From positions 88,626 through 152,625 of the forward strand of contig JAQULK010000001.1 in the NCBI GenBank assembly GCA_028718635.1: DNA of 64,000 nt. Reading direction: 5' to 3'. Below, piece by piece: positions 5,613 to 52,482 of the stretch; position 1 is the stretch's first letter; the number at the start of each line of letters is the position of its first letter. The stretch comes from Minisyncoccota bacterium (GTDB lineage: Bacteria; Patescibacteriota; Minisyncoccia; Phycocordibacterales; UBA9973). The notes beneath the pieces were generated by a model. It was given only the letters and a program-made list of their open reading frames with translations, had not been told where the DNA came from and did no database searches. A program made the translations under genes and the position numbers.

Positions 5613-7142
5613 ATGAGTACAACAATAATAATTCTAATAGGAGCCCTGATACTCCTGTTGGGTGTGGGCGTGGGATACTATCTTCGTCTAATCATCGCCT
5701 TAGGAAAAAGAAGGTCTATTGAAATAGATATAAAACAGATGATGGTCGGCGCAAAAGAAGAAGCGCAGAAAATCACCGAAGAAGCAAAAAAGAAGTCTGA
5801 GGAACAACTGGCATATCTGAAAGAAGAAGAAAAAAAGAAAGAAATTGAATTTAAAGAGACAGAAAAAAGACTCATCAAAAAAGACGAGTTTTTGGATGCG
5901 CGACAAGTCGAGGTAAATAAAGAAGTGGAAAATATCAAAGTGAAGGTGGAAGAAATAAAAAAAATTCAAGAAAAAGTATTGAAAATAGAAGCAGAAAAAA
6001 TAGTAGAACTGGAAAGAGTGGCAAAATTAACCGAAATTGAGGCTAAAGATGAACTTTTAAAAGATGTTGAAAAAAAATATGAAGAAGATATTTTAGTTAG
6101 AATCCAAAAACTAGAGAATAGTAATGAGGAAAAGTTGGACCGAAGAGCCAAAGACATCTTGGCAACTTCTATCCAGCGCCTGTCTTCTAGTACTGCCTCT
6201 GAATTGATGACAACCGTAGTTACCATTCCAAACAACGAAATCAAGGGTAAAATAATCGGAAAAGAGGGTAGGAATATACGGGCATTTGAAAGAGCCTCCG
6301 GAGTTGAGCTTATTGTAGACGATACGCCTGGCTCAATAGTCATTTCTTCATTTGATCCAATCAGAAGACAAGTCGCCCGACTTGCTTTAGAAAATCTGAT
6401 ACTAGATGGACGCATTCAACCGGCTAAAATCGAAGAATTGGTAGAAAAGGCAAAAGAAGAAATAAATAAAATCATAAAAGAAAAAGGAGAACAGGCGGTT
6501 TATGAATGCGGTATATTTAATTTTGATCCACGCATCATCGCAATTATTGGCCGACTATATTTCCGTACAAGTTACGGACAAAACGTTCTTCAGCACTCTA
6601 TCGAAATGGCACATATCGCTGGAATGCTCGCAGAAGAATTGGGAGCAGATGTAGCCATCGCCAAAGCCGGAGCCTTGGTGCACGACATCGGTAAAGCCTT
6701 GGATCACGAAGTACAAGGAACGCATGTCGAAATAGGTATGCGTATTTTGCAAAAATTCGGAGCAGATGAACGCATTATTACTGCGATGAAAAGTCATCAC
6801 GAAGATTATCCTTATGAAACTATTGAATCCATCATTGTGCAAACAGCAGACTCTATCTCTGGCGGACGTCCCGGCGCGCGCCGTGATTCAGTGGAAAATT
6901 ATCTAAAGAGACTTCAAGAACTAGAAGCATTAGTAAATGCTTTTCCAGCGGTTGAAAAATCATATGCTTTGCAAGCTGGACGAGAAATCCGCATCTTTGT
7001 AACACCGGAAAAGATTTCTGATGCTGAAGCAAAACTTATGGCACGAGATATTGCTATAAAAATAGAACAAGAACTCAAATATCCGGGAGAAATCAAAGTC
7101 ACAATGATTCGCGAAACACGAATTATTGAGTACGCTCGCTAA
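5613..7142 (+). CDS. rny: ribonuclease Y
   Basis: 509 aa. N-terminal TM segment, Lys/Glu-rich coiled coil, KH domain (GKIIGKEGRNIRAFE) and HD domain (LVHDIGKA). Confidence 0.9.
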   Translation: MSTTIIILIGALILLLGVGVGYYLRLIIALGKRRSIEIDIKQMMVGAKEEAQKITEEAKKKSEEQLAYLKEEEKKKEIEFKETEKRLIKKDEFLDARQVEVNKEVENIKVKVEEIKKIQEKVLKIEAEKIVELERVAKLTEIEAKDELLKDVEKKYEEDILVRIQKLENSNEEKLDRRAKDILATSIQRLSSSTASELMTTVVTIPNNEIKGKIIGKEGRNIRAFERASGVELIVDDTPGSIVISSFDPIRRQVARLALENLILDGRIQPAKIEELVEKAKEEINKIIKEKGEQAVYECGIFNFDPRIIAIIGRLYFRTSYGQNVLQHSIEMAHIAGMLAEELGADVAIAKAGALVHDIGKALDHEVQGTHVEIGMRILQKFGADERIITAMKSHHEDYPYETIESIIVQTADSISGGRPGARRDSVENYLKRLQELEALVNAFPAVEKSYALQAGREIRIFVTPEKISDAEAKLMARDIAIKIEQELKYPGEIKVTMIRETRIIEYAR

Positions 7143-7147
7143 AAATT

Positions 7148-7252
7148 CTTAGAAATATAACTTTTGAAGGGGTTTCGAGCGCGACGGCGCGAGAACTTCA
7201 GGATTTTTTTCACCAGAAAAAAATCCGTACCGAAAAAAGTTTATATTTTAAG
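7148..7252. repeat. ~105-bp inverted-repeat-bounded element (family D, copy 1)
   Basis: Shares core GGGGTTTCGAGCGCGACGGCGCGAGAACTTCAGGA...TCCGTACCG with 18395..18507. Ends are AT-rich inverted repeats. Internal hairpin GGATTTTTTTCACCAGAAAAAAATCC. Confidence 0.6.
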
Positions 7253-7387
7253 AATTTTGTGAAACAACATAAATACTTGCCTAAAAAAACCCTTGATATA
7301 TAATGTAGGGGTATTAAAAATATAGGTTAAATGGCCCTCCAAAGGCGGGCAAGGTCGAAATATTACAAATATCATCTTAAAAAATAT

Positions 7388-18246: not shown

Positions 18247-18394
18247 CCCAGTACTAAAATTTTAAAATTAATAATATTATAAAAAGGACTTATCTCGTAC
18301 GACGTTATATTTTTCTAAACTTTTATATAATAAAAATTTAGTACGGGACAGGTGTATATAGTATAGCAAATTTTTGAAACTTGTCGCAGGCGTT

Positions 18395-18507
18395 AGAAGT
18401 TTGGAAAATAGTTTTCGCAGGGGTTTCGAGCGCGACGGCGCGAGAACTTCAGGAATTTTTAAGCTTCAAAAATTCCGTACCGGAGAAAACTTATTTTCCA
18501 AACTTCT
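18395..18507. repeat. family D element, copy 2
   Basis: 22-bp inverted repeats AGAAGTTTGGAAAATAGTTTTC / GAAAACTTATTTTCCAAACTTCT. Core identical to copy 1. Abuts the rpsO stop codon. Confidence 0.65.
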
Positions 18508-18769
18508 ACGCTAGATCCATTTTCTTCATCAAAGCTGTGTAGCGAGGTTTGCTTTTGCGTTCCAAATATTTTAAATGAGTGCGCCTGTCGGCTACCATCT
18601 TGATCAACCCTCGACGAGAATGATTGTCCTTTTTGTGTTTCTTTAAATGTTTTGCCAGTTCGGAAATCTGAGTAGATAAAATAGCCACTTGCACTTCTGA
18701 AGAGCCTGTATCCTTGTCATGAATTTGATTTTTCTTTATAACTGTTTGCTTTTTCTTTGTATTTAACAT
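18506..18769 (-). CDS. rpsO: 30S ribosomal protein S15
   Basis: 87 aa with the S15 pattern ([20 protein letters not shown]). Confidence 0.9.
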
Positions 18770-18808: not shown

Positions 18809-20557
18809 CTAATACACCTCCCCCTGATAACACCTCTCACAATACACAATCTCCTTCCTCTCCGGCGCATAAGAAGTCTCAAACTCTGTGGGGCATTTAC
18901 CTATATGGGTATGGGTAGTCTTCTCACACATGCAAGCTCTATGCCAGAGCTTTAAGGGATTTCTTTGTTTCAGTCTCTGGTAATGTCTGCAGTTAGGACA
19001 GAGATGAGGTAAGGGTAGATTCATTCTTTGGTAGAATTGGAGTTCTGGAGCAATGATTTTGAAGGCTTCGGTGCATTGTTCGTTGCATTTGCCTTGATGT
19101 TCGCATTCAATGACTTTTCCTAGAATAGATTCATCTACCTCTTTGATATTATCAGGAATGTCTTTTGTTTTAATGTCTATTGTATAGTTTCTTTCTTCTG
19201 CATCTTTCCACTTGTAACCTTGTTTAATAGCTTCTTCTTTAGTTAAAGGAAAGTATTCTTGAGCAATGGTTTCGTTGTAACAGAAAGGACTTAATTCTAC
19301 CGGAAAGAACTCTCCGTATTGGTAAATTCTGCCTTTACTATCTATGTAGGGCATATCATTCATGTGCTTGATGATTTTGGGGACCAAGGCTTCGTATTGT
19401 TCTTTGGTGTATTGGTGGTTTAGGATGCAGTAGGATTTGTTGTGTAAGCCAATGCAGCCAAAAAGATTATTGCAATTATCACAATCAATAGAATATGAAA
19501 CGTTAATTAAATTTAATCCATGTAAAGCACTTAAAATATTAGAACTAAAATCAACATTTAGAGATTCATAAGCTAATTCTCCTCCACTAACACCATATAC
19601 ATCACTAGTATCTTTCTGCCCTTTCACAGACCTAATGCTGTATCTAACATTATCAACTTCTGAAGTAAAATGTGACTTTTTAACATTTTTTGAGTTGTTA
19701 ATAAAATTACCGGTAGCATTAACATAATTTTTACCAATCATAAATTTATGAATAGCTGCGCTTTTTACTTTTTTATATTTATCAAATAATTCATTTAATC
19801 CGTCAGGTGATTTAAGGGAATTTAATAATGATTCTTTTGTTTTATTAAATTCTTCTTTTGAAACTACCTTATTTACAATACAAAATTGTTGATTGCGAAG
19901 ATTTGAAGAAAAAAGGCAATTCTGGCAATTTTTACAATCATACACAAACCAACAATCTATACAGTTTGCACAATCTTGAGCGAAAAAGGTTTGATAACAA
20001 TTATCAGAATTTATTAACTGAGAAGATAGTTCACATTTATTTATCCATGAATTATCAATGCAGTTTTTACTTTCCAATACAGTATCTCCGTACTGGCAAT
20101 TTTCTGAGTACCAACTGCCAAAAACCAAGTAGCAGTCTTTCATATCTACGCATATATTACAATAATTACTTCTTACTGGATTAATATTATATAAAGCATA
20201 TTTGGGAACTTTTTTATCAAGAGCATGGAATTGTTCAAAAAAAGATTTATTAAAATCATAATCTACTCCATAGTCTCTCGAATCCCAGTTAGCTTCATTT
20301 ATCCAATATTCTTTATCATAAATAATATAAGGGGATTCCGAAGAATACATACTTATTATTTTTTCTTTTGACTTTGAAGCACTGTTCTCTTTTTTATATA
20401 ATGCTCTTTCATTTCTAAACAACATTCTTCTTATCGTTCTGCACTCTGGGCAAAAAGTCGGCGGAGGGACATTAATTTTTTCATAAAACTTGAAATCATC
20501 CGGCTCTATCGTGAAATCCTTTTTGCAGTTTTGGCAATTTTTTGTTTCTGGCTCCAT
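18809..20557 (-). CDS. large Cys-rich protein with zinc-ribbon-like modules at both termini (paralogue 1)
   Basis: 582 aa. N-terminal CxxCxKxF..FYEK.N.P.P..CP.CR..RR module recurs at the C-terminus. Central CxxC-rich repeats. Paralogue at 22743..24422. Confidence 0.6.
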   Translation of the reverse strand: MEPETKNCQNCKKDFTIEPDDFKFYEKINVPPPTFCPECRTIRRMLFRNERALYKKENSASKSKEKIISMYSSESPYIIYDKEYWINEANWDSRDYGVDYDFNKSFFEQFHALDKKVPKYALYNINPVRSNYCNICVDMKDCYLVFGSWYSENCQYGDTVLESKNCIDNSWINKCELSSQLINSDNCYQTFFAQDCANCIDCWFVYDCKNCQNCLFSSNLRNQQFCIVNKVVSKEEFNKTKESLLNSLKSPDGLNELFDKYKKVKSAAIHKFMIGKNYVNATGNFINNSKNVKKSHFTSEVDNVRYSIRSVKGQKDTSDVYGVSGGELAYESLNVDFSSNILSALHGLNLINVSYSIDCDNCNNLFGCIGLHNKSYCILNHQYTKEQYEALVPKIIKHMNDMPYIDSKGRIYQYGEFFPVELSPFCYNETIAQEYFPLTKEEAIKQGYKWKDAEERNYTIDIKTKDIPDNIKEVDESILGKVIECEHQGKCNEQCTEAFKIIAPELQFYQRMNLPLPHLCPNCRHYQRLKQRNPLKLWHRACMCEKTTHTHIGKCPTEFETSYAPERKEIVYCERCYQGEVY

Positions 20558-22742: not shown

Positions 22743-24422
22743 ATGCAAAAAGTTTGTAAAACTTGTAAAAAAGATTTTGAGATACAACAGGACGATTTGA
22801 ATTTTTACGAAAAGATGAAGTCCCCTGCTCCAAGTCACTGTCCGACTTGCCGAATAATGCGCAGGCTTTGTTTTCGTAATGAGAGAACCCTTTACAAAAG
22901 AACTTGTAGTAAAAGTGGCAAACCCATTATTTCTTTATACCCAGAAAACACTCCCTTCCCTGTTTATGATCAACATATTTGGTGGGGTGATGAATGGGAT
23001 GGAATAGATTATGGACAAGATTATGATCCTAGCCGACCTTTTTTTGACCAATTCCTTGAACTTCGAAATAAAGTTCCGCGTATATCTCTTCTAAATATAA
23101 ATAGTATAAATAGCGAATATGGAAATAATATAGAGGATAGTAAAAATTGCTATTTAACATTTGCAGCGCAAAAAAATGAAGATTCAATGTACGGGAGACT
23201 AATATACAGAAGCCGTTTAGTGGTAGATTGTGATTTTACCCAAGATTCAGAACTCTGTTATGAATGCATAGATTGTAGAAAATGTTACCATTGCCTATTC
23301 TCAGATAGTTGTGAAACAAGTACAGATTTGCTTTTTTGTTTCAATTTGCGCGACTGCCAAAATTGCATTTTTTCTACGAATTTAAGGCATAAAAATTATC
23401 ATATTTTCAATCAACCAGTTTCAAAAGAAGAATATGAAAAACAGAAAAAAGAGATTTTTTCTTCGTATTCAAATTTAGAAAAAGCAAAACAAGAATATGA
23501 AAAATTTAAGAAAAAAGCCATTGTAAAATACTCGCATCAAGTGAAATGTAAAAACGCTACTGGAGATTATTTATATAATTCCCATGACACTAAATACGGT
23601 TTTGATGCTGAAAATACTAAAAACTGTAAATATATAGCAGATGCAGAAGGCACTGTTGATTGTTGGGACATGAATAACACTTACTATAAACCAGAACTCA
23701 ACTTAGATATGATGGGAGTTCTTCAAACTTACAATGTTAAACATTCTTTTTATATATTGTATTCCAGTAATATAGAATATTCTGAAAGTTTAAACAATTG
23801 TGAAAGTTGCTTTGGTTGTACCGGATTAAAAAAGAAAAAATATTGTATTTTAAATAAACAATACGAAAGAGAAGAATATGAAAAATTAAAAGAAAAGATT
23901 ATTGAAAACATGAAAAAGGAAGGCATTTATGGAGATTTTATTTCGCCTCAAATGAGTGTTTTTGGATACAACGAAACCTTGGCTCAAGAATATTTCCCAA
24001 TAACAAAACAAGAAGCCGAAGCAGGAGGCTTTAATTGGCAAGATCAGACTACTGGCACTTATGATAAAGAAACAATCAAAGAAGAAAATATGCCGGAAAC
24101 TATTTCTGAAGTTTCAGATGAAATTTTAAAAGAAATTTTGGTATGCCAAGATTGCAAAAAGAATTTTAGGATTACCAAATCTGAATTGGATTTTTATAAA
24201 AGAATGAATATTCCTCTGCCCCACAAAGATTTCGAATGCCGGCACAAAGACCGTATGAAAAAGCGCAATCCGCGGGAGCTTTGGCGCCGTTCTTGCATGT
24301 GCGAACTCAAAAACCACACTCATGGCACAGAAAAATGCGCAGTAGAATTTGAAACATCCTATTCTCCCAACAAACCAGAGACAGTTTATTGCGAACAATG
24401 TTATCAACAAGAAATATACTAG
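22743..24422 (+). CDS. large Cys-rich protein with terminal zinc-ribbon-like modules (paralogue 2)
   Basis: 559 aa. Collinear with 18809..20557. Same N- and C-terminal modules and central CxxC repeats. Confidence 0.6.
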   Translation: MQKVCKTCKKDFEIQQDDLNFYEKMKSPAPSHCPTCRIMRRLCFRNERTLYKRTCSKSGKPIISLYPENTPFPVYDQHIWWGDEWDGIDYGQDYDPSRPFFDQFLELRNKVPRISLLNINSINSEYGNNIEDSKNCYLTFAAQKNEDSMYGRLIYRSRLVVDCDFTQDSELCYECIDCRKCYHCLFSDSCETSTDLLFCFNLRDCQNCIFSTNLRHKNYHIFNQPVSKEEYEKQKKEIFSSYSNLEKAKQEYEKFKKKAIVKYSHQVKCKNATGDYLYNSHDTKYGFDAENTKNCKYIADAEGTVDCWDMNNTYYKPELNLDMMGVLQTYNVKHSFYILYSSNIEYSESLNNCESCFGCTGLKKKKYCILNKQYEREEYEKLKEKIIENMKKEGIYGDFISPQMSVFGYNETLAQEYFPITKQEAEAGGFNWQDQTTGTYDKETIKEENMPETISEVSDEILKEILVCQDCKKNFRITKSELDFYKRMNIPLPHKDFECRHKDRMKKRNPRELWRRSCMCELKNHTHGTEKCAVEFETSYSPNKPETVYCEQCYQQEIY

Positions 24423-25911: not shown

Positions 25912-27594
25912 TTACTTCACTCCATGTTTCGTGTGTAGTTTTTTTACCTCTTCTTCTTCTAATTCTTCTTTTTTTTCTTTTCCGCGCAGACCGAGAGTTT
26001 TGAGTTCCGCATCCCCAAGCATATTTAAAGATTTTACCAATTCAGACAAATGTTCCACGGTATTTTTCTCCGGGGCATCCAGCACTTCTTCGAGCAACGC
26101 ATGCAAAATCCACCCCATCCGCGGTCCGGAAGTTATTCCGAGTTCTTTTATCATAAATTCTCCGTTGATTTTTAGCTGTCCGACAGAAATCGGATCCCTC
26201 AAAGCCTCCTCGATCATGGCAAAATATTTTCGAAGCCGATACGGGGCTTCTTTCTTTTTCATTCCCACCCTGTCGCACTCACGGACATCCATTAAAAGCC
26301 AAATATTTTCTTTGCCGACTTTTGTAATAATTCTTCGCACTGCCGAAAGTGTGATCAATTCCGTATCGGAAAAAAACATATGATTGCGCACAAGCTTGGA
26401 CACCAATTCAATTTCTTTTTTAGGAAATTTTAATCTCTCCATTATTTTTTTTGCCATTCGCGCCCCGACAACTTCATGCCCGTAAAAAGTAAATTTCTTT
26501 TTAGCTTTTAAAGACGAAGACGGGGAAATAAATTTGCTTTCGCGGGGTGTCTCGCAGGCTGACGAGCCGAGAGGCAGCGCTGTGCGAGCACGCACAGACA
26601 GCGACCCCGAGAAAGCAGAATTTATTTCCCCGTCTTGTTTCCCTGCAAGTCTTCTAGCTCGCGGTTTCCCAATATCATGAAAAAGCGCTGCGAGCCTTAT
26701 TTCTAAAGACCAATTCTTGTTCGCTGCATGTTGCAATGCAAGTAATGAATGATTCCAAACATCATAAATATGCTCCCCCCCTTGTTCACAATCCACGCCT
26801 TCGAGTAATTCAGGAATTATATTTTTTAACAAATTAAATTTCTGAAGCATTAGCACTCCAGAAGAAGCATTGGCACTAGTTGTTATTTTTACAAATTCAT
26901 CTCGGATTCTTTCCTCAGAAATTTTTTTTATTAATTCCGAATTTTTCAAAATACTTTCCGTTGTTTCTTGCGCAATAAAAAAATTAAGTTGGCAAGAGAA
27001 ACGCACCGCGCGCAACATCCGAAGAGCATCTTCGGCAAAGCGGTCATCTGGATCCCCTACCGCTTTTAACGTCTTGTCCTTAATGTCCTTTATGCCGTCA
27101 AACAAATCTACGAGGTGTCCTTTAGGGCTTAAGGCCATTGCATTGACTGTAAAATCACGTCTCTTGAGGTCATCCTCTAACTTATCACTGAATTTTACCT
27201 CATCAGGATGCCGAAAATCGCTGTATTTTGCCTCTGTTCTATATGGAGTAACTTCAATTATGAAATTATGGGATGTTTCACGAATAACGTCTTGTATTTC
27301 CCCCTCTCCTTTACAAGGAGAGGGTTGGGGTGAGGTTCCCAATGTTTCACGGGAAACAACCACTGCGACCGTTCCAAACGTATTTTCATATACAGTCTTC
27401 TCAAAAAGCCCTATTATTTGTTCCGGTTTTGCATTCGTCGTGACATCCCAGTCGTTTGGTATTTTATCCATTAAAAGATCTCGAACACACCCGCCAACTA
27501 AATATGCCTCAAATCCGGCCTTTTCGAGCGTATTTGTTACATGTGAAACTTCTTTGGGGATTTTGGATATTAAGTTTTTAGTTATTGAATCCAC
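25912..27594 (-). CDS. cca: CCA-adding tRNA nucleotidyltransferase with HD domain, carrying two in-frame palindromic insertions
   Basis: GGCVRDLLM and RRDFTVNAMA (polymerase head). HD motif LFHDIGKP. Insertions at about 27296..27345 and 26518..26625. Confidence 0.85.
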   Translation of the reverse strand: MDSITKNLISKIPKEVSHVTNTLEKAGFEAYLVGGCVRDLLMDKIPNDWDVTTNAKPEQIIGLFEKTVYENTFGTVAVVVSRETLGTSPQPSPCKGEGEIQDVIRETSHNFIIEVTPYRTEAKYSDFRHPDEVKFSDKLEDDLKRRDFTVNAMALSPKGHLVDLFDGIKDIKDKTLKAVGDPDDRFAEDALRMLRAVRFSCQLNFFIAQETTESILKNSELIKKISEERIRDEFVKITTSANASSGVLMLQKFNLLKNIIPELLEGVDCEQGGEHIYDVWNHSLLALQHAANKNWSLEIRLAALFHDIGKPRARRLAGKQDGEINSAFSGSLSVRARTALPLGSSACETPRESKFISPSSSLKAKKKFTFYGHEVVGARMAKKIMERLKFPKKEIELVSKLVRNHMFFSDTELITLSAVRRIITKVGKENIWLLMDVRECDRVGMKKKEAPYRLRKYFAMIEEALRDPISVGQLKINGEFMIKELGITSGPRMGWILHALLEEVLDAPEKNTVEHLSELVKSLNMLGDAELKTLGLRGKEKKEELEEEEVKKLHTKHGVK

Positions 27595-30729: not shown

Positions 30730-30918
30730 GATTTCCTTTTCTAGCCTTTTAAAATAAGGGTAGAATCACAGGACGACCAATAGGTTCTGTAAACAAAAGG
30801 TTCTCACGATGTTACTATCTTCTCTGGAATTCAGTCAACTTGTACTATACCTCTCTTCAGAACTATGTTTTAAGGATAGTTCAAAAACAGCCAAAAGTCA
30901 ATTTAATGGAAAATTAAT

Positions 30919-31290
30919 GTGGATAACCCCCACACCTTTTGTTTTATACCTTCAGGTCATATAATGATTATTATGTATTATATATATGTTCTAAAAAGCA
31001 TAAAAGATGATAAATTATATATCGGTTCGACTAATGACCTGAAGCGAAGACTTTCGGAACACAACAATGGATTTAATCGTTCAACAAAAGCTAGGCGACC
31101 ATTTGAACTTCGCTATTATGAAGCTTGTGCCAATGAACATGATGCTAGAACTAGAGAATATAATTTAAAAAAAGATGGAAAAGCGCTTGGGCAACTAAAA
31201 AGAAGGATTTCCGAAAGTCTTAAATAAATCCCCACAACCTATTTGGATAGGTGTGGGGATAAAACGAAAGGTGTGGGGGATAACCCTTTT
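30919..31290. mobile_element. GIY-YIG gene bounded by inverted repeats (family B: TGTGGATAACCCCCACACCTTT / AAAGGTGTGGGGGATAACC)
   Basis: Inverted repeats at 30921..30942 and 31270..31290 enclose one small GIY-YIG ORF. A solo derivative lies at 61068..61216. Confidence 0.6.
30964..31227 (+). CDS. small GIY-YIG nuclease-family protein
   Basis: YYIYVLKS...KLYIGSTNDLKRRLSEHN pattern. Start placed after the inverted repeat. Confidence 0.65.
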   Translation: MIIMYYIYVLKSIKDDKLYIGSTNDLKRRLSEHNNGFNRSTKARRPFELRYYEACANEHDARTREYNLKKDGKALGQLKRRISESLK

Positions 31291-33733: not shown

Positions 33734-35809
33734 GTGGATATAGAAGAAAAACATCTAAAAGGTCTAAATAGTGAGCAAAAAGAAGCGGCGCTTCATATGA
33801 AGGGACCGCTTTTGATTATTGCCGGAGCGGGAGCTGGGAAAACAAAAACGATTACGCACAGAATTGTAAATCTTATAAAAAACGGCGTGTCTCCCGATAA
33901 AATTTTGGCAGTGACCTTCACTAATAAGGCCGCTAAAGAAATGCGAGAGAGAATTATTTTAGAAATTAATAAAAACGCAAAAGGTCAAGAAAAAATTCCT
34001 TTCGTTTCCACTTTTCATTCTCTGGGAGTTTATATAATAAAAGAAAACGCCCGACTGCTCGGACTGACGAGATATTTTACTATTTTAGACGAAGGAGACG
34101 CGACCACTCTTATAAAAAATATTTTAAAAGAGCTTAGCATAGACCCGAAGCAATATGATCCAAAAAAAATAAAAAATATAATCTCGCGGGAAAAAGGAAA
34201 ATTTACAAATCTAACGGATTATATGGAGAAAGCCCTCTCCTTCGGGGAGGGTTGGGAGGGGTCTCTGGGTAAAATTACAGCTCAAGTTTGGAATTTGTAT
34301 GAAAAACAAAAAATGAAAGAGAATTCTTTAGACTTCGATGATCTGCTCTTAAAAGCGGTAAAACTACTGAAAGAAAACGAGGAAATTAGAAAAATATATC
34401 AAGAAAAATGGGAATATATCCACATTGATGAATATCAGGACACGAACGAAGCGCAATATTTGATGTCTAAATTACTTTCCGAAAAAAGTGGAAATATTTG
34501 CGTAGTCGGGGATGCCGATCAAAATATATATTCTTGGCGCGGAGCAAATTTGAAAAACATTCTGAATTTTGAAAAAGATTACCCGAATACAAAAATAATT
34601 TTGTTGGAACAAAATTACAGGTCTACAAAAAATATTCTAGAGGCGGCAAATGAAGTAATTAAGAAAAATAAATATAGGCCGGATAAAAATTTGTTTACGA
34701 AAAACATTGAAGGCGAAAAAATAGGCTTCTATGAAGCCCTAGACGAAACCGATGAAGCTGAATTCGTCGCCACAAAGATTATGGAGATACTAGACAGCGG
34801 GGCAGACTTGCTTTTTCGGGGTGTCTCGCAGGCTGACGAGCCGAGAGGCAGCGCTGTGCGAGCACGCACAGACAGCGACCCCGCAAAAGCAGAGTCTGCC
34901 CCGCTGTCTGAAATAGCCGTTTTGTATCGCGCAAATTTTCAATCGCGGGCGCTCGAAGAAGCGATGCTTCGGTACAATATTCCTTACCAAGTTTTAGGGG
35001 TTAAATTTTTTGAAAGAAAGGAAATAAAAGACACTCTCGTTTATTTGCGTGCAGCTCTCAATCCCGATAGCCTGTCTGATATAAAAAGGATCATTAATTT
35101 CCCATCGAGAGGCATTGGAAAAGTAACCTTGATGAAAATCTTTGCCGGCCAAAGAGAAACCCTGCCGGTAAAAATGCAAATAAAAATTAATAGTTTCTAT
35201 GAAACATTGGAAGAGATAAAGGAGAAAATAAATGATTTAAAAACAAGCGATCTCATAAAATTCGTAATAAAAAAGTCCGGAATTGAAACAGAACTTTCCT
35301 CTGGCACTGAAGAAGATATGGAAAGATTAGAAAACATCAAAGAGCTCGCCACCCTTGCGCTCAAATATGACAATCTAAAAAATGGAGCGGGTATAGAAAA
35401 ACTTTTAGAAGATGCCTCGCTTGCTTCAGATCAAGACTCTTTAATAATAAATCAAGAAAAGAAAGAAATAAAAAATGCGGTAAAATTAATGACAGTACAT
35501 GCTTCAAAAGGCCTTGAATTTGAATATGTTTTTGTTGTTGGATTAGAAGACGGGCTTTTTCCGCACGAGAGAATGGGAGACAGCCCAGCCTCCGCACAAG
35601 GCTTCGGCGAGACGCAGGAGGAAGAAAGAAGGCTTTTTTATGTGGCACTTACCCGCGCAAGGAGAAAATTATTTTTATCATTTGCGAATTTCCGCACTAT
35701 TTTCGGTTCGCGCAACATCAACGCTCCTTCAGAATTTATTTCTGATATTCCAGCAGATTTATTTGAAAGGGAAGGCGAAGATAGCGGGATAAAAACAATT
35801 TATTTATAA
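33734..35809 (+). CDS. uvrD: UvrD/PcrA-family ATP-dependent DNA helicase with two in-frame palindromic insertions
   Basis: Motif I AGAGAGKTKTITHR, DEYQDTN, and motifs V/VI. Insertions at about 34228..34268 and 34800..34905. Confidence 0.85.
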   Translation: MDIEEKHLKGLNSEQKEAALHMKGPLLIIAGAGAGKTKTITHRIVNLIKNGVSPDKILAVTFTNKAAKEMRERIILEINKNAKGQEKIPFVSTFHSLGVYIIKENARLLGLTRYFTILDEGDATTLIKNILKELSIDPKQYDPKKIKNIISREKGKFTNLTDYMEKALSFGEGWEGSLGKITAQVWNLYEKQKMKENSLDFDDLLLKAVKLLKENEEIRKIYQEKWEYIHIDEYQDTNEAQYLMSKLLSEKSGNICVVGDADQNIYSWRGANLKNILNFEKDYPNTKIILLEQNYRSTKNILEAANEVIKKNKYRPDKNLFTKNIEGEKIGFYEALDETDEAEFVATKIMEILDSGADLLFRGVSQADEPRGSAVRARTDSDPAKAESAPLSEIAVLYRANFQSRALEEAMLRYNIPYQVLGVKFFERKEIKDTLVYLRAALNPDSLSDIKRIINFPSRGIGKVTLMKIFAGQRETLPVKMQIKINSFYETLEEIKEKINDLKTSDLIKFVIKKSGIETELSSGTEEDMERLENIKELATLALKYDNLKNGAGIEKLLEDASLASDQDSLIINQEKKEIKNAVKLMTVHASKGLEFEYVFVVGLEDGLFPHERMGDSPASAQGFGETQEEERRLFYVALTRARRKLFLSFANFRTIFGSRNINAPSEFISDIPADLFEREGEDSGIKTIYL
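34800..34905. repeat. ~100-bp GC-rich palindromic element shared with cca (26518..26625)
   Basis: Core GGGGTGTCTCGCAGGCTGACGAGCCGAGAGGCAGCGCTGTGCGAGCACGCACAGACAGCGACCCC is identical at both loci. Short inverted flanks. In-frame in both host genes. Confidence 0.8.
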
Positions 35810-35813: not shown

Positions 35814-36695
35814 ATGATACACAAAGCAAAAAAATCCCTAGGGCAAAACTTTTTAAAATCTGAAATGGCCTTAAAAAAAATTGTTGAAGCCGGGGAAGTA
35901 AAAAAGAGCGATATAGTTTTAGAAATAGGACCAGGCAAAGGAGCGCTCACGTCTAAACTTTTAGAAAAAGCAAAAACTGTAATTGCGGTAGAGAAGGACC
36001 GCGAACTTTTTGAATTTTTAAAAGAAAAATTTAAAAAAGAAATAAAATCAAAATCTCTCCTCTTGATACAGGGAGATATTTTGGAGTTCGACCCCCTCTT
36101 AATCTCCCCCTTGGCAGGGGGAGAGGGAACAATTAACTACAAAATTATCGCCAACATTCCTTACAATATTACTGGTGCAATTTTGAAAAAGTTTTTGACG
36201 GCAAAAAATCAACCGGAGAGGATGATTTTAATGGTCCAGCACGAAGTGGCTAAACGCATAATGGCTCGCGACCCACGCCACGGCGGGGCAGGTGGCAAAG
36301 AAAGCATTCTTTCAATTTCGGTCAAAGCTTACGGTGAACCAAAGATGATTATGAAGGTGAATAAAAGATATTTTTCTCCTGCACCAAAAGTTGACTCAGC
36401 TATAATTGCGATAAAAAATATTTCTAGGGAAAGATTCACCTTATCCCAAAATTCACCTCACCCCAACCCTCTCCTTATTAAGGAGAGGGAGACATTTGAA
36501 GAAAAATTCTGGGAAATAGTAAAGACTGGTTTTGCACATAAAAGGAAAAAACTCTCCAGCAATCTAAAGAATGTTTGCCAAAGTGTTTGCCAAAGCAAGG
36601 CTTTGGCAAACTTGGGAAATAAAAGAGCTGAGGATTTAACTCTTAACGACTGGATTATGCTGACTAAAGGGGAGATGAGCCGACCATCGGAGTAA
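35814..36695 (+). CDS. rsmA: 16S rRNA (adenine1518/1519-N6)-dimethyltransferase
   Basis: LGQNFL and EIGPGKGALT motifs. Two in-frame GC-rich palindromic insertions encoding DPLLISPLAGGEGT and NSPHPNPLLIKERET. Confidence 0.85.
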   Translation: MIHKAKKSLGQNFLKSEMALKKIVEAGEVKKSDIVLEIGPGKGALTSKLLEKAKTVIAVEKDRELFEFLKEKFKKEIKSKSLLLIQGDILEFDPLLISPLAGGEGTINYKIIANIPYNITGAILKKFLTAKNQPERMILMVQHEVAKRIMARDPRHGGAGGKESILSISVKAYGEPKMIMKVNKRYFSPAPKVDSAIIAIKNISRERFTLSQNSPHPNPLLIKERETFEEKFWEIVKTGFAHKRKKLSSNLKNVCQSVCQSKALANLGNKRAEDLTLNDWIMLTKGEMSRPSE

Positions 36696-43803: not shown

Positions 43804-44346
43804 ATGACTGAAAAATCAAAAAAATTAATACAAGAGGAAATGTTGAATCTGCCAAAAGAAGCGCAAGATGCCATCAATGCTTCAAATTGGGAAAAACAAT
43901 CTGAAGAAATTGGAAAAAAATACTTACTGAATGAGGATGAAATTTATACTTTTCAACTAGAAACAGCTTGTTTTTTACTTGGTCTTATTGATGAAGATCA
44001 ATACCAAAAAAATATCGAAGATGGCATAGGCACCAGTAAAGCTGAAGCAGAAAAAATATCTGAAGAAGTAATACAGAAAATACTTATTCCTATCAATGAT
44101 CTTTTTGTAAAAAATATTAAAAAAAGCGATAAGGTAAAAAACGCAACGGCTGAGCAAAATCTTAATTTTATTTTATCCGGCGGGGATTATACGGCGTTTT
44201 TGGATGTTCCTCCTCTCGTTGATAAGGAGGGGAATGAGGGGAGGTTCTTAACTAATTCAAATTCACCTCACCCCGACCCTCTCCTTAGTAAGGAGAGGGG
44301 GAATACTGAAGAAACAGTCTTACCAGCCTTTTTTATTAAAAAATAA
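43804..44346 (+). CDS. hypothetical protein (paralogue of the next gene)
   Basis: 180 aa. N-terminus similar to 44364..44957. Carries an in-frame palindromic insertion encoding SNSPHPDPLLSKERGN. Confidence 0.45.
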   Translation: MTEKSKKLIQEEMLNLPKEAQDAINASNWEKQSEEIGKKYLLNEDEIYTFQLETACFLLGLIDEDQYQKNIEDGIGTSKAEAEKISEEVIQKILIPINDLFVKNIKKSDKVKNATAEQNLNFILSGGDYTAFLDVPPLVDKEGNEGRFLTNSNSPHPDPLLSKERGNTEETVLPAFFIKK

Positions 44347-44978: not shown

Positions 44979-45258
44979 ATCCCGTTAGAGATCACTTATG
45001 TTTTATTACACATATATTTTAAAAAGTAAGAAGGACGGTAAAATTTACACTGGATATACGCAAGACCTACGGAAGCGCCTGAATCAGCATAATAAAGGTT
45101 TATCTACATATACGAAAGGACGAGGCCCATTTATTTTGATATACTATGAAGGGTGTCTATTAGAAAGTAAAGCGAAGTCGAGAGAATTATTTTTAAAATC
45201 GGGAATGGGCAAGCGTTATCTAAAAAATAGATTAGGCGCTTCCTATCTCTAACGGGAT
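44979..45258. mobile_element. GIY-YIG gene bounded by perfect 14-bp inverted repeats ATCCCGTTAGAGAT / ATCTCTAACGGGAT (family A archetype)
   Basis: The inverted repeats directly flank the 84-aa GIY-YIG ORF. Termini match the solo family A repeats. Confidence 0.7.
44998..45252 (+). CDS. small GIY-YIG nuclease-family protein
   Basis: YYTYILKSKKDGKIYTGYTQDLRKRLNQHN. Confidence 0.7.
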   Translation: MFYYTYILKSKKDGKIYTGYTQDLRKRLNQHNKGLSTYTKGRGPFILIYYEGCLLESKAKSRELFLKSGMGKRYLKNRLGASYL

Positions 45259-45721
45259 GCAATTCAAAGTTCCACAATTTTTAGACATTGAAGATAAAAT
45301 ATTCGGCCCTTTTACTTTTAGGGAATTTGTTTATTTAGCCGGCGGGGCAGGCTTGTGTTTTATTCTTTATAAATTGCTGGGTCTTATTTTAGGAATAATA
45401 CCCATTTTAGCTGTCGCGGGATTTTCGCTCGCTCTTACTTTTTACAAACCAAATAATAAACCATTTATTAATATAATAGAATCAGGTTTTAAGTATTTTA
45501 CCCAAAATAAACTTTATATTTGGAAGAAAAAAGCAAATAAAACCACCTCTTCCCCCGCCTTCTCCAAAGGAGAAGGAGCCCTCTCCTTCGGGGAGGGTTT
45601 GGGAGGGGTAAACAAAATTCAAATGATGCATCCAGGCAGTTCCCCGTTGAGTGGGAGCAAGTTACGAGACTTGGCTTGGAGTTTAGATGTGCTGGACTTG
45701 AGTAAGCAACAATCCCGTTAG
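45257..45721 (+). CDS. PrgI-family (VirB3-analogue) membrane protein
   Basis: MQFKVPQFLDIEDKIFGPFTFREFVYLAGGAG followed by two TM helices. Lies immediately upstream of VirB4. In-frame palindromic insertion near the C-terminus. Confidence 0.55.
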   Translation: MQFKVPQFLDIEDKIFGPFTFREFVYLAGGAGLCFILYKLLGLILGIIPILAVAGFSLALTFYKPNNKPFINIIESGFKYFTQNKLYIWKKKANKTTSSPAFSKGEGALSFGEGLGGVNKIQMMHPGSSPLSGSKLRDLAWSLDVLDLSKQQSR

Positions 45722-45833
45722 AAGCCGCGGTCGCAGTTTAAAAAATATAAATATGTTAAATAGAAAAATAAAAATTAATAGAATAACAAAGCATAATCAC
45801 GGTCTGTTGACCGCGACCTGCTTCTAACGGGAT
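45711..45833. repeat. family A element (GAAGC subtype)
   Basis: Left inverted repeat contains the TAG stop of the PrgI-like gene. Right inverted repeat ends ...TAACGGGATG, giving the ATG of the next ORF. Inverse-orientation copy at 61725..61805. Confidence 0.75.
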
Positions 45834-46470
45834 GGCCTTAAACGCAAAAGCAACTCAAGAATTTGTCCCGATCAAGGAAGTCCGCGATGGAATCGTTGTA
45901 TTAAAAAACGACGAACTGCGAGCTATTGTCCTAGCCAATTCTGTCAACTTAGCCTTAAAATCTTCCGACGAACAACAGGCAACAATAATGCAATTCCAAA
46001 ATTTTCTTAACACTTTGGATTTTTCTGTGCAAATATCGATTCAATCAAGAAGACTGGACATTAGACCGTATCTTTTGCTTTTGGAAAACAGAATCAAGGT
46101 GCAAAATGAGCCTCTTTTAAAATTACAAACCAAAGAATATATAGACTTCATCAGAAATTTTACTGACTCAGTGGCAATAATGACCAAAAACTTTTTTGTA
46201 GTAGTGCCTTACACTCACACTGCCTTAAAATCAGACTCTGGAATCTTGGATAAAATATTTTCTAGAAAAAATAAAGAAGAAATAAAAGCTGCCAAACAAA
46301 TAGCCTTTGAAGAAAAAAGATCCCAATTGGAAGAAAGAGTGGCGGTCATTCAGCAAGGACTCTCTAGTTGCGGTATAAATTCAGCGCAGCTCGGCACCGA
46401 AGAAGTAGTGGAAGTATTTTATAAGGTTTTCAATCCGGGAGAGATAGAAGGGAAGATTAAAGTAGAATAG
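45832..46470 (+). CDS. VirB4/TraE-type ATPase, N-terminal segment
   Basis: FVPIKEVRDGIVVLKND...NLALKSSDEQQATIMQFQNFLNTLDFSVQISIQ resembles Gram-positive VirB4 N-termini. Confidence 0.5.
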   Translation: MALNAKATQEFVPIKEVRDGIVVLKNDELRAIVLANSVNLALKSSDEQQATIMQFQNFLNTLDFSVQISIQSRRLDIRPYLLLLENRIKVQNEPLLKLQTKEYIDFIRNFTDSVAIMTKNFFVVVPYTHTALKSDSGILDKIFSRKNKEEIKAAKQIAFEEKRSQLEERVAVIQQGLSSCGINSAQLGTEEVVEVFYKVFNPGEIEGKIKVE

Positions 46471-46509
46471 CATCGAGCGCCTTAGGCTCTCTGAGAGCCT
46501 AAGGCGCTA

Positions 46510-48369
46510 ATGCAAAATAAAATGAGTATCTTAGAAAACATTAAAAAATTATTTGGAAAAGAAAAAAGAGACGATAATGAAGAAACACAAGCTTCTGTTT
46601 TGGCCGTCTTGCCGGAAAAGATCTATGAGTCTGCCAATCTTGAACTTCAAGATGTCATAGCGCCGTCAGCCTTAAAAATTGACCCGAAATCCATAAATTT
46701 AGGAAACAAAATCGCCCGTACTTTTTTTATAATATCTTATCCGAGATATTTAACAGATAATTGGTTTTCTCCGATAATCAATTTGGATAAAATTTTTGAT
46801 ATTTCAATATTCATCCACCCCATAGACACTTCTCTCATGTTGCGGCAATTCCAGAAAAAAGTGGCTGAAGTTCAAAGCCAGATAAGCGTCCGAGAAGCAA
46901 AAGGGATGGTACGCGACCCGATGCTGGACACTGCTTATGAAGATTTGGAAGGGCTTCGCAATAATCTGATCCAAGCGCAAGAAAAGATGTTCGATGTGGG
47001 AGTTTACATTACGATTTATGCAGATAATGAATTAGAGCTATTTAAAATTGAAAATGAAATAAAATCAATGCTCGAATCGAAGCTCATATACATCAAGCCG
47101 GCGCTTTTCCAGCAAGAAGAGGGTTTTAAAAGCGTTATTCCAATAGAAACAGACTTATTGAACATCCATCAAAAATTAAACTCTGAGCCTCTTTCTAGTG
47201 TTTTTCCATTTATTTCCTCTGATCTTACTTCCGACAAAGGAATACTTTACGGTATCAACAGAAATAACTCGTCCCTCGTTATTTTCGACCGGTTCAGCTT
47301 AGAGAATTATAACTCCGTGACCTTTGCTAAATCAGGTTCTGGAAAATCTTATGCGGCAAAATTAGAAATTTTAAGATCATTAATGTTTGACACTGATGTC
47401 ATCGTAATAGATCCAGAAAGAGAGTACGAATTTTTAGCTGAAACTGTCGGCGGACGCTATTTTAATATTTCACTTTCCTCAGATCACCATTTAAATCCCT
47501 TTGATTTGCCAATACCTCGTGAAGATGAAACAGTGGAGGATGTATTGCGTTCAAATATTATAAACTTAGTGGGGCTTTTCAGGCTGATGCTAGGCGGACT
47601 CACCCCGGAAGAAGATTCAATGGTGGACCGAGCTATTTCAGAAACTTATGCTATGAAAGACATCACCCCGGAATCAGATTTTTCAAACATCGAACCTCCT
47701 CTTCTTTCAGATTTCGAAATGGTGCTCTCTGGGATGGAAGGAAGCGATTCGGTCATCGCCAGACTGGCAAAATACACCCGAGGCTCTTGGTCAACCTTCT
47801 TAAATAGACCGTCTAATGTAGATATCAACAAAAAATTCGTGGTTTTTTCTGTCCGTGATATGGAAGACGAATTAAAACCGGTAGCCATGTATATCATAAT
47901 GCATTACATTTGGAATGCGATAAGAAAGAATCTTAAAAAAAGACTTCTCGTAGTGGACGAAGCCTGGTGGATGATGAAATCTGAAGATACGGCTTCATTT
48001 CTTTATTCAATCGCAAAAAGAGGCAGAAAATATTATTTAGGTCTTTCCACTATTACCCAAGACGCAGCTGACTTTATGAAATCTCCATATGGCGTACCAA
48101 TAATCACCAACTCTTCCATTCAACTTCTCTTGAAACAATCGCCTACCACTATTGATATTCTGCAAAAAACCTTCAACCTCACTGATGAGGAAAAATATTT
48201 GCTTCTAGAATCCGGACTAGGGGAGGGTATATTTTTCGCAGGATTAAAGCACGTCGCTATAAAAATAGTTTCTTCTTATACTGAGGACCAGATCATTACC
48301 TCTGATCCTTCGCAAATATTATTAAACAAAAAAGCCAGAGAGGAGCAGGAGGCGAAGGATATGGTATAA
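46510..48369 (+). CDS. VirB4/TraE-type type IV secretion ATPase (central and ATPase domains)
   Basis: YPRYLTDNWF...ISIFIHPID. Walker A AKSGSGKSY. Walker B LLVVDEAWWM. Confidence 0.8.
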   Translation: MQNKMSILENIKKLFGKEKRDDNEETQASVLAVLPEKIYESANLELQDVIAPSALKIDPKSINLGNKIARTFFIISYPRYLTDNWFSPIINLDKIFDISIFIHPIDTSLMLRQFQKKVAEVQSQISVREAKGMVRDPMLDTAYEDLEGLRNNLIQAQEKMFDVGVYITIYADNELELFKIENEIKSMLESKLIYIKPALFQQEEGFKSVIPIETDLLNIHQKLNSEPLSSVFPFISSDLTSDKGILYGINRNNSSLVIFDRFSLENYNSVTFAKSGSGKSYAAKLEILRSLMFDTDVIVIDPEREYEFLAETVGGRYFNISLSSDHHLNPFDLPIPREDETVEDVLRSNIINLVGLFRLMLGGLTPEEDSMVDRAISETYAMKDITPESDFSNIEPPLLSDFEMVLSGMEGSDSVIARLAKYTRGSWSTFLNRPSNVDINKKFVVFSVRDMEDELKPVAMYIIMHYIWNAIRKNLKKRLLVVDEAWWMMKSEDTASFLYSIAKRGRKYYLGLSTITQDAADFMKSPYGVPIITNSSIQLLLKQSPTTIDILQKTFNLTDEEKYLLLESGLGEGIFFAGLKHVAIKIVSSYTEDQIITSDPSQILLNKKAREEQEAKDMV

Positions 48370-48376
48370 TAAAACT

Positions 48377-49363
48377 ATGAGACTTAGGTTTTTAACATTA
48401 AATTTTCTTATAACAATCGCGATACTAGGAACTTTTTTACCGCTCGCCGCAAAAGCAGTTTCGTCGGATGATGTTTTAGTTAATGTGTCACCAGAAAATC
48501 CAGCCCCTGGTGAAAACGTAAATATTTCTTTAAAAAGCTATGTTAATAATTTAGACATAGTTTTAATATCTTGGTCAGTAAATGGCAAGAATGTTTCCTC
48601 TGGGATTGGCAAGAAATCTTTTTCTCTTAATGCACCAAGCGCTGGAGGGGAAACAAGCGTCATCGCCACTGCTTCCTTGCCAGATGGCGCAGTAGATACA
48701 AAGGTAATAATAAGACCCTCGGCAATGGTGTTGCTTTCCGAAGCATTGGATTCTTATACACCTCCGTTTTATAAAGGCAAAGCATTACCTTCGCCTGATA
48801 GTTTAGTAAAAGTAGTTGCCTTACCAGAAATAAAATCTGGCTCTAATTTTATAAATCCTAAAAATCTGACTTACGCCTGGCAAAAAGATTACACCAGCAA
48901 CCAAGATGGTTCCGGTTATGGAAAAAATACTTTTACTTATGTAAATGATTATCTTGAAAACTCAAACAACATCGGAGTGACAGCCGGAACCACTGATCAG
49001 AAATTTTCCTCAACAGTAAATATAGACGTAAGAATGAAAGAACCAAAAATTATTTTTTACAAAAATGACGCCAAGCTGGGAACGATTTGGGAACAAGCAC
49101 TCGCTGATGGATATAAAATTCTCGGAAATGAAATCATTGAGGCAGCGCCGTATTTTTTCTCACCTCGCGACATCAGAGTTCCATTAGTCACTTTTGATTG
49201 GTTTATAAATAGCCAAACAATAAATGTGCCTAGTTATAGGAAAAATATACTGCCACTTCAAGCACAAGTGGGAACTTCCGGAACTTCTAAAATAAGATTA
49301 GAAATTAATAATGCCGATAAAATTTTTGAAAGCGCCGTTAAGGAAATCAATGTAAATTTTTAA
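48377..49363 (+). CDS. secreted hypothetical protein of the T4SS-like cluster
   Basis: 328 aa with signal peptide. No recognised motif. Confidence 0.45.
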   Translation: MRLRFLTLNFLITIAILGTFLPLAAKAVSSDDVLVNVSPENPAPGENVNISLKSYVNNLDIVLISWSVNGKNVSSGIGKKSFSLNAPSAGGETSVIATASLPDGAVDTKVIIRPSAMVLLSEALDSYTPPFYKGKALPSPDSLVKVVALPEIKSGSNFINPKNLTYAWQKDYTSNQDGSGYGKNTFTYVNDYLENSNNIGVTAGTTDQKFSSTVNIDVRMKEPKIIFYKNDAKLGTIWEQALADGYKILGNEIIEAAPYFFSPRDIRVPLVTFDWFINSQTINVPSYRKNILPLQAQVGTSGTSKIRLEINNADKIFESAVKEINVNF

Positions 49364-50299: not shown

Positions 50300-50314
50300 T
50301 TTAACCACATTTTT

Positions 50315-52477: not shown

Positions 52478-52482
52478 CATTC

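Follow-up and report, generated by a model that had tools for sequence, protein, structure and literature searches.

Palindromic repeats that lie in frame within protein-coding genes have so far been regarded as a peculiarity of Rickettsia, and a review of 2024 merely speculates on their occurrence outside this genus (PMC10969869). The Rickettsia palindromic elements (RPEs) RPE-1 to RPE-10 (Ogata et al. 2000 Science, 2002 Genome Res) are summarised in the same review (PMC10969869). In this study, a comparable element was found in a stretch of 64,000 nt from a Minisyncoccota bacterium of the phylum Patescibacteriota (contig JAQULK010000001.1, positions 88,626 to 152,625 of the forward strand; assembly GCA_028718635.1), hereafter called the window. 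It is present there in two copies, one within cca (CCA-adding enzyme) and one within uvrD (helicase). Judging from comparative sequence analysis, the element is rather probably a mobile, non-autonomous DNA palindrome of selfish nature, which colonises permissive surface loops of Paceibacteria housekeeping proteins and would be transcribed and translated together with its host genes.

The element shares with RPEs the form of a ~100-150 bp repeat folding into a stable hairpin, the in-frame location in numerous housekeeping genes that are unrelated to one another, within a small, AT-rich genome, and the read-through as an added surface-loop peptide. Moreover, in both cases there are several families per genome, copies are also intergenic and no transposase is known. 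A preliminary description of the window had called the element an RPE-type selfish insertion, and this is right as regards its behaviour (an in-frame, repeated palindrome), but the element is RPE-like rather than one of the RPE families; both phylum and architecture differ. RPEs are confined to Rickettsia, whereas this element occurs in Patescibacteria, and the likeness is judged by behaviour, not by sequence. RPE copies were also reported to lose their palindromic identity over time (PMC6649704), whereas the arms of the present element stay paired through massive sequence change. Further differences are its conserved centre with variable ends, the in-place flips of its core and the predicted translation of both orientations.

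REPIN/RAYT systems (PMC3116915) are comparable in having a ~100-nt hairpin as the replicative unit, compensatory changes in the stem and a proposed single-stranded DNA (ssDNA) fold, as well as low to moderate copy numbers and long persistence in lineages (PMC3116915). However, REPINs are composed of conserved inverted REP ends and a variable spacer, i.e. the reverse of the layout seen here; they are extragenic, while 84% of the copies of this element are genic; and each REPIN family has its cognate RAYT. No RAYT (Y1) was found among the scanned open reading frames (ORFs) of the window or the genes adjoining intergenic copies. The coding palindromes of Nematomorpha mitochondria (PMC6649704) are likewise long, near-perfect inverted repeats in translated genes, with arms apparently kept actively by conversion or template switch, with codon degeneracy used to pair host codons and with dynamic gain and loss. 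Those palindromes lack a conserved mobile core, and the protein parts that they encode are conserved, whereas here the arms surround a shared core and are situated in a loop that is inserted and not conserved. In the open-access full-text literature, such elements were not found to be described from Patescibacteria or the Candidate Phyla Radiation (CPR). The family is previously undescribed; it is kin to RPEs in its behaviour, to REPINs in its compensated hairpin and to the Nematomorpha palindromes in its kept arms, and it fails defining features of each.

Two copies of the element in cca and uvrD

The longest run of identity between the two copies is 67 nt long (26543-26609 and 34817-34883, offset 8274, both on the + strand) and is surrounded by a wider region of similarity of 86 nt with 95% identity (26534-26619 versus 34808-34893). 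The identical core on one strand reported in the preliminary description is thus real, although its length and position (69 nt at 26538-26606 and 34816-34884) had to be corrected. A 66-nt core pattern matched only two sites of the window (26544-26609 and 34818-34883), with 0 matches expected from shuffles, and a scan of the window with a covariance model gave no third copy beyond these two and two distant relatives of repeat family D8 (Table 1).

Both host ORFs continue in frame across the element. As had been stated, cca lies on the - strand and uvrD on the + strand, and the element is read through in both orientations; the peptides GVSQADEPRGSAVRARTDSDP in UvrD and GSLSVRARTALPLGSSACETP in Cca are as quoted then (the copy within Cca reads ...KQDGEINSAFSGSLSVRARTALPLGSSACETPRESKFISPSS...). 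The insert is located between HDIGKP and FTFYGHE in Cca and between the helix EAEFVATKIMEIL and the strand IAVLYRAN in UvrD. In the AlphaFold model of UvrD (pLDDT, i.e. predicted local distance difference test, 63.8; of moderate quality and used for the local helix-coil-strand context alone), residues 357-388 form a coil with pLDDT <50 between a helix (338-354) and a strand (394-398), both of which are predicted confidently.

Each copy folds into a hairpin of ~120 nt (z about -9.5), and the complementary strand folds nearly as well. The stem (~25 bp) has three zones, of which the outer one is wholly different between the two window copies and the inner one is semi-conserved (TTGCTTT.. / ..AAAGCAGA, with one additional base on the 3' side). 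The stem base GGGG/CCCC carries a three-way junction with two hairpins, H1 and H2. The different inverted flanks that had been noticed for each copy are real and self-complementary, and they are longer than was supposed, the hairpins extending over 26517-26636 and 34791-34910. They are not incidental, but constitute a rapidly evolving, actively kept stem, made partly of host codons. It had also been pointed out that the element is open in both orientations. This is true, but one frame alone is used per orientation though others are open: the core is stop-free in five of its six frames, and the full hairpin in five of six (uvrD copy) or three of six (cca copy). When the whole window was searched with Rfam 15 at gathering thresholds, tRNAs were the only matches and no family was found for the element; a search of the element itself at E up to 10 gave just spurious matches to microRNA-precursor hairpins.

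The family across Patescibacteria and its host genes

Species-representative genomes were scanned once for an exact 24-mer from H1, and 8-kb loci around the matches (numbered with the prefix L below) were analysed. The scan gave 71 loci in 56 assemblies, with 74 copies (70 distinct) in many unrelated genes, a set that is ascertainment-biased for H1 and in which copies at orthologous sites are not independent, so that the counts overstate the sample size. All matched metagenome-assembled genomes (MAGs) are Patescibacteria (Nomurabacteria, Paceibacterota, Kaiserbacteria and Zambryskiibacteria), with some records probably mislabelled. One locus, L053 (JAMPXW010000003.1), is labelled as a Burkholderiales MAG and carries a Paceibacteria-type fmt with the element, whose arms are almost identical to those in L030 and L039; this contig is probably mis-binned. 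No 24-mer match was obtained in viral contigs, phage genomes or plasmids.

Among the 70 distinct copies, 59 (84%) are located inside long ORFs. Their length is always a multiple of three, and they contain no stop codon in the host frame, compared with 60 and 100 stops in the other two frames. Only the frames '+1' (GVSQADEPRGSA..DSDP) and '-0' (..ALPLGSSACETP) are used, one per orientation. The hosts confirmed by Pfam are Cca, UvrD (two sites), UvrB (two sites, once both in one gene), Tgt (two sites), TsaD, an IleS-like synthetase, LeuS, Fmt, Def, MnmA, an RluD-like synthase, RsmA, a prenyltransferase-like protein and an epimerase. Two of the synthetase ORFs have additional domains: a NUDIX domain between the editing and anticodon-binding domains in the LeuRS ORF L056:2625-5675 and a histidine-phosphatase domain in the IleS-like ORF L025:2-2641. 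These may be insertions or fused neighbour genes in stop-to-stop ORFs.

The remaining 11 copies are intergenic and are found mostly in GC-richer genomes, in some cases within operons (e.g. L018, upstream of rpsH). GC-rich intergenic copies (L003, L018, L019, L060, L066 and L069) have direct repeats (G)CGAG(C) on both sides. The CGAGC pentamer is also part of H1 (GACGAGCCGAG), and AT-rich genic copies have no such flanking repeats.

Gain, loss and inversion at the same loops

Orthologue alignments of Cca and UvrD, suggested in the preliminary description as a check, showed that both copies are insertions into otherwise short loops. The empty uvrD sites of L072 and L074 read LDSG/LSE (TTA GAT AGC GGT/TTA TCT GAA and CAG GAC AGT GGC/CTG TCC GAG), and in every PcrA orthologue of greater distance the corresponding loop is short, with 8-10 residues. 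In uvrD the insert comprises 102 nt (34802-34903), with a boundary that is ambiguous by 1 nt only, hence a target-site duplication is absent. No direct repeats were seen outside the arms of the AT-rich genic copies, and no common flank motif was found among genic copies; the greedy script used for stem extension was unreliable, and clean cases alone were read for target-site duplication or motif. The empty cca orthologue of L065 reads RARR-ETESSA-KKKYTFYGHE, while cca of L004 carries the same element family in the same orientation and that of L027 an unrelated palindromic insert in the same loop. On the evidence of these alignments, the element is a derived insertion of ~100-125 nt without target-site duplication.

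The uvrD loop was compared in 110 close homologues. It holds a '+' copy of the element in 55 and a '-' copy in 8 of them, is empty in 9 and is occupied by other inserts in 38. The latter represent at least five families, and composites, a truncated half-element and an internal deletion were also seen. Orientation differences were observed between species-level genomes only. The closest '+'/'-' pair of uvrD genes differs by ~5% in the flanking protein and has different arms. At a single fmt site the '+' copies of L030 and L053 and the '-' copies of L012 and L039 share both arms and H2 type, and in uvrD, too, either orientation was seen at one site with arms and H2 type in common. In the closest filled/empty pair (P0035/P0087) the flanks are 95% identical, the loop is remodelled, and the DNA is too diverged (33% ungapped identity) for breakpoints to be placed. 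From these sequences, the element is to be regarded as mobile or at least as repeatedly gained and lost.

The 'empty' loops often keep short palindromes, such as AGATA..TATCT, GGACAG..CTGTCC, GGAAA-CAT-TTTCC and TAGGAAA-C-TTTCCTA (L072, L074, L157 and L088). Possibly, these are footprints of the deletion of hairpin centres.

A constrained core between paired, rapidly changing arms

An unbiased estimate of conservation was obtained from uvrD copies recovered via the protein and not via the element. The copies of this set have a mean pairwise identity of 0.87 in the core, 0.62 in distal H2 and 0.48 in the arms, compared with 0.39 at fourfold-degenerate sites of the surrounding uvrD gene. Therefore the core is constrained, whereas the arms evolve at an approximately neutral rate and yet are still paired. 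The alignment of 70 copies has an invariant centre (columns 37-70 and 85-95), including unpaired junction and loop bases, and variable ends, with the invariance of H1 being partly a matter of ascertainment. The idea that the core is absolutely invariant was rejected: it reflects the 24-mer search, and UvrD homologues show variants (e.g. ADGPRGSA) as well as decayed copies. In the D8 relatives (7135-7265 and 18387-18515) the H1 stem has covaried to GCGC/GCGC, with the GACG loop and the G/A internal loop (GA/GAG) kept, and an AT-rich sister or decayed subfamily (in rsmA and uvrD of other loci) retains GCAGGCTGACGAGCCGAG of H1 exactly.

Compensatory double changes were found in 30 of the 43 pairs of the 70-copy alignment, with 13-39 such changes for each of the distal H2 pairs 71-84 to 75-80. 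This covariation is nearly purely Watson-Crick, as G-U accounts for 2 of 350 pair instances in distal H2. In the arms, read in the mRNA sense, there is no G-U excess (61 G-U versus 90 A-C), and antisense copies are no less intact than those in sense to the host gene. Strand-specific folding was considered and set aside, as the G-U excess in the element sense drops to p = 0.08 after clustering and removal of one doubtful pair, and is a hint at most. A link between orientation and replication was also discarded, because the GC skew of the flanks tracks the orientation of the host gene and not that of the element.

H2 types recur over sites and genomes (e.g. CCGCGAGCACGCGG in tgt, tsaD, uvrD and rluD copies), as expected for element subfamilies, and a single genome often has copies with different H2 types (L042/L056/L064 and L027/L062/L071). 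In L054:7673-7842, H2 is enlarged to a perfect palindrome of ~60 nt (CCGCCATCCGCC...GGCGGATGGCGG), i.e. a palindromic growth within the core.

What the outer arms have in common between sites is their complementarity and not their sequence, and native sequence in the arms is limited to the outermost two to three codons. In the uvrD copy of the window, native codons for Asp-Ser and Leu-Ser make up the outermost pairs (AGACAG/CTGTCT), and an inserted CCCG pairs with a native CGGG. In L077 and L009, the native 5' codons recur in inverted form in the 3' arm, after which the native LSE is retained. In L004, native Ser-Ser-Ala codons are rewritten (TCT GTC TCT GC) and thereby pair with GCAGAGACAGA (ETE). 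The frames '+1' and '-0' are exactly the pair that is interconverted by an inversion with breakpoints in the outer arms (paired columns sum to 131).

Proposed mechanism and alternative explanations

If the element is a selfish mobile palindrome, its functional unit would be folded ssDNA or a cruciform rather than mRNA. The core, and chiefly H1 (the stem with GACG loop and the G/A internal loop), would be the recognition site of a putative trans-acting enzyme that copies or moves the element; such recognition would explain its conservation over subfamilies and species. The arms may be kept and extended during replication by intrastrand template switching (snap-back copying), which would turn adjacent host sequence into new stem and repair mismatches to perfect complements. 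Such a process has been put forward both for quasipalindromes and for Nematomorpha coding palindromes (PMC6649704). Exchange within the outer arms would invert the core together with the inner arms, linking exactly the two reading frames seen. Insertions that break the frame, add a stop codon or encode a harmful peptide would be purged by selection. Those that survive would have hydrophilic readings, rich in Gly/Ser/Pro/Asp/Arg, and lie in essential genes, in which an imprecise loss would be lethal.

Several observations weigh against this explanation. When the scanned ORFs of the window and the genes beside intergenic copies were compared with Pfam, housekeeping genes alone were found and no transposase, HUH/Y1 enzyme or recombinase, and the partner enzyme is hypothetical. 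Template switching, as the mechanism that would keep the arms, is borrowed by analogy from the quasipalindrome literature. The copy number is low (at most four exact 24-mer copies per assembly). Many copies occupy orthologous sites, and vertical inheritance could explain much of the distribution; if it is mostly vertical, a core identity of 87% needs site-by-site purifying selection, which is unusual for selfish DNA. The core shows constraint at the level of nucleotides, and a selfish insert that simply decays would have none. The strong bias of the hosts towards enzymes handling tRNA or rRNA and repairing DNA could point to a function. Finally, one frame alone is used per orientation despite other open ones, for which there is only a putative explanation, namely peptide tolerance.

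One alternative is that of a host-beneficial cis-element, in which the three-way junction is a nucleic-acid signal within coding sequence under purifying selection at each site, for example a site for a regulator or for a nucleoid or replication protein, a hairpin affecting mRNA stability or translational pausing, or a tRNA-like decoy for tRNA-binding enzymes. Besides the core being far more alike than fourfold sites (87% against 39%), this would fit the exact H1 of the AT-rich sister subfamily, the covarying H1 stem of the D8 relatives, the persistence of same-site copies in many species, the location of intergenic copies within operons (L018, upstream of rpsH) and the prevalence of tRNA/rRNA-modifying enzymes, aminoacyl-tRNA synthetases and repair helicases among the hosts. 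It is nevertheless quite unlikely. About 8% of the close UvrD orthologues are without any insert and a third have unrelated families in the loop, so no particular sequence is required at this place. Some copies are decayed, truncated or internally deleted, copies flip freely relative to the gene, the mRNA sense has no G-U preference and no Rfam family matches. Another explanation dispenses with dedicated machinery altogether, and ascribes the origin, growth, spread and homogeneity of the palindromes to template switching and ectopic gene conversion as part of an unusual DNA maintenance, with conversion conserving the core, as was proposed in similar form for the coding palindromes of Nematomorpha mitochondria (PMC6649704). 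The purely Watson-Crick covariation, the lengthening of arms by inverted copies of host flanks, the palindromic expansion of H2 in L054:7673-7842, the residual short palindromes in the 'empty' loops of L072, L074, L157 and L088, the accumulation of several families at the same loops and the identity of the two window copies all suit it. On the other hand, conversion within genomes cannot stop drift between species, and the core is near-identical in 56 assemblies and 87% identical in the unbiased set; differing H2 types within one genome indicate weak homogenisation, and pairing alone leaves the conserved unpaired junction and loop bases unexplained. We regard an origin of this sort as decidedly unlikely.

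In fmt and uvrD, copies of either orientation with shared arms occupy one site; both orientations are open and in frame, and the frames used match those swapped by inversion through the outer arms. This could indicate a programmed, inverton-like intragenic switch, in which the core flips reversibly within a population and thereby recodes ~22 residues of a surface loop of housekeeping enzymes. But orientation differs between species-level genomes only, the closest '+'/'-' pair is already ~5% apart in the flanking protein and differs in its arms, no invertase was found in the window ORFs scanned or in neighbours of intergenic copies, and both peptides are without evident function, in a loop that is disordered according to the structural model, which makes a switch very unlikely. 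Least probable of all, and to an extreme degree, is removal at the RNA level, i.e. the idea of a small ribozyme that cleaves itself, of an intron or of a translational bypass element, with the element being absent from the mature protein. This would agree with the compact three-way junction and its numerous unpaired but invariant bases, with a CUGACGAG-stem motif resembling that of a hammerhead (CUGACGA) and with a long stem bringing the flanking exon ends together. However, 59 of 59 genic copies are in frame and stop-free, with 60-100 stops in the other frames, and a removed element would need neither property; an intron or bypass element was rejected for this reason. A hammerhead ribozyme was rejected as well, since stem II is not followed by GAAA and the D8 relatives have not retained CUGA. 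Rfam gave no match even at E up to 10, and copies antisense to the mRNA are equally conserved.

Comparison with mobile palindromes

[quoted passage not shown] Correia, ERIC, BOX and Nezha; PMC10969869) are also short, non-autonomous repeats with inverted symmetry, sometimes intragenic and in frame. In contrast to the element, they have target-site duplications and conserved terminal inverted repeats that match the transposase of an insertion sequence (IS); here the ends are not conserved and AT-rich genic copies have no duplication, while GC-rich intergenic copies are flanked by CGAGC repeats. Palindrome-associated elements derived from IS200/IS605 insert 3' of a fixed tetra- or pentanucleotide and on a fixed strand relative to replication. 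Here the genic copies have no flank motif in common, and the GC skew of the flanks tracks host-gene orientation rather than that of the element. With intragenic invertons, the element has in common the inverted repeats around an intragenic segment and the openness of both orientations.

The terminal hairpins of parvoviruses, including adeno-associated virus (AAV), consist of a long stem capped by two small hairpins, occur in flip and flop forms and serve as replication origins, with a Rep nicking site, on linear ssDNA. The likeness to the element (a stem with a three-way junction and an asymmetric head in two orientations) is an analogy only, and nothing ties the chromosomal element to such replication. 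The GC-cluster and byp elements of yeast mitochondria are GC-rich, palindromic mobile elements which invade coding regions of an AT-rich genome, and in this they resemble the present element. The byp elements, which are cited in PMC6649704, break the reading frame and are skipped by the ribosome, whereas every copy of the present element keeps the frame.

Other repeats and features of the window

The coordinates of the element, its parts, hosts and relatives are collected in Table 1.

Table 1. Location of the palindromic element, its substructures, host genes and distant relatives in the window.
Feature	Positions	Strand	Remarks
Copy 1, full hairpin	26517..26636	+	In frame within cca (- strand); 26517 pairs with 26636; -75.8 kcal/mol, z -9.7; covariance model 133 bits
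Copy 1, 67-nt core (inner stem GGGG/CCCC and three-way junction)	26543..26609	+	Identical to copy 2
Copy 1, hairpin H1 (GUCUC-GCA-GGCU-GACG-AGCC-GA-GAGGC)	26549..26575	+	Fold and 70-copy alignment; most conserved piece of the family
Copy 1, hairpin H2 (GCGCU-NNNNN-AGCA-NNNNN-AGACAGC)	26577..26602	+	Distal 5 bp covary
Copy 2, full hairpin	34791..34910	+	In frame within uvrD/pcrA (+ strand); -84.3 kcal/mol, z -9.4; covariance model 134 bits
Copy 2, extra DNA relative to empty sites (LDSG/LSE)	34802..34903	+	102 nt = 34 codons, ADLLFRG...AKAESAP; codon alignment with L072 and L074
Copy 2, 67-nt core	34817..34883	+	Identical to copy 1
Copy 2, hairpin H1	34823..34849	+	Fold and 70-copy alignment
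Copy 2, hairpin H2	34851..34876	+	Fold and 70-copy alignment
Host 1, CCA-adding enzyme / poly(A) polymerase family protein with HD domain	25912..27594	-	Pfam PF01743, PF12627, PF01966, PF13735
Host 2, UvrD/PcrA helicase	33734..35809	+	Pfam PF00580, PF13361
Distant relative of the element, intergenic	7135..7265	+	Architecture as in the element; covariance model 31 bits, E 5e-7; repeat family D8; ORF map
Second distant relative, intergenic	18387..18515	+	Covariance model 34 bits, E 9e-8; repeat family D8

Several other repeats were observed. A different palindromic family, with conserved ends ATCCCGTTAGAGGC...GCCTCTAACGGGAT, is found in frame twice within the metK (S-adenosylmethionine synthetase) ORF 13312-14514, at 13959-14012 and 14448-14501, where it encodes CPVRGHEGSQCVSASNGI and CPVRGREGSQRPSASNGI; it also has intergenic copies (5330-5389 and 62845-62898), and its ends resemble the R boxes of integron attC sites (GTTAGAG / CTCTAAC). 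Both genes that carry the studied element contain a copy of another family: a third one (ACCTCACCCC(A/G)ACCCTCTCCTT..AAGGAGAGGG) is located at 27296-27336 in cca, encoding TSPQPSPCKGEGE, and at 36449-36510 (3' end of rsmA), 44259-44320 and 51790-51851, while a fourth one, a short GC-rich hairpin AGCCCTCTCCTTCGGGGAGGGTTGGGAGGGG, is located at 34231-34261 in uvrD, encoding ALSFGEGWEGS, and at 45577-45607 and 50633-50663. In addition, inverted pairs CCATCCCGTTAGAAGC(A/C)G.TCGCG surround 40-100 nt at four intergenic places (45712-45835, 52354-52509, 53405-53463 and 61722-61804). These units are MITE-like, with conserved ends that are related to those of the metK family.

The canonical arrangement of rnpA-yidD-yidC-jag and dnaA-dnaN (53.9-54.2 kb) with DnaA boxes at 54119-54219 suggests that oriC lies near 54 kb. 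The minimum of the cumulative GC skew and a switch of the gene strand are located near 27-31 kb instead, together with perfect DnaA boxes at 27971 and 30918 and inverted repeats at 30916-31285, and the position of the origin within the window is ambiguous. A type IV secretion-like cluster (45257-51715) encodes a PrgI family protein, a TraG/VirB4-type P-loop ATPase and a pilin of the type IV secretion system. Two diverged, paralogous Cys-rich ORFs of ~570 aa (18809-20557 on the - strand and 22743-24422 on the + strand), corresponding to the inverted repeats I1/I2 of 71-73% identity, are arranged in inverted orientation around xth and other genes; the former has no Pfam match.

Implications

With this family, coding palindromes of several families are described from the CPR, where they reshape loops of Cca, PcrA/UvrD, UvrB, Tgt, TsaD, aminoacyl-tRNA synthetases and MetK. 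A bolder proposal, which we consider unlikely, is that the three-way junction formed with H1 and H2 is the recognition module of a Paceibacteria-wide system acting on folded ssDNA. In one form, this could be a hairpin-templated transposition, with the stem built from the target flank and inverted copying of the target replacing target-site duplication. In another, the structure could be domesticated by the host, which would use it while the core flips and recodes loops of tRNA-handling and repair enzymes. Either form, if true, would be a mechanism without described precedent in bacteria.

For the reading favoured here, that of a non-autonomous selfish palindrome, the significance for mobile-DNA biology lies in a layout unlike that of MITEs, REPINs and RPEs, which combines a constrained core, paired arms rebuilt from host codons, no target duplication and in-place inversion. 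For annotation and phylogenomics, it means that marker proteins hold non-homologous inserts of 30-40 residues, which can appear, flip or vanish between close relatives. As regards protein evolution, such elements are a steady source of new surface loops in minimal genomes.

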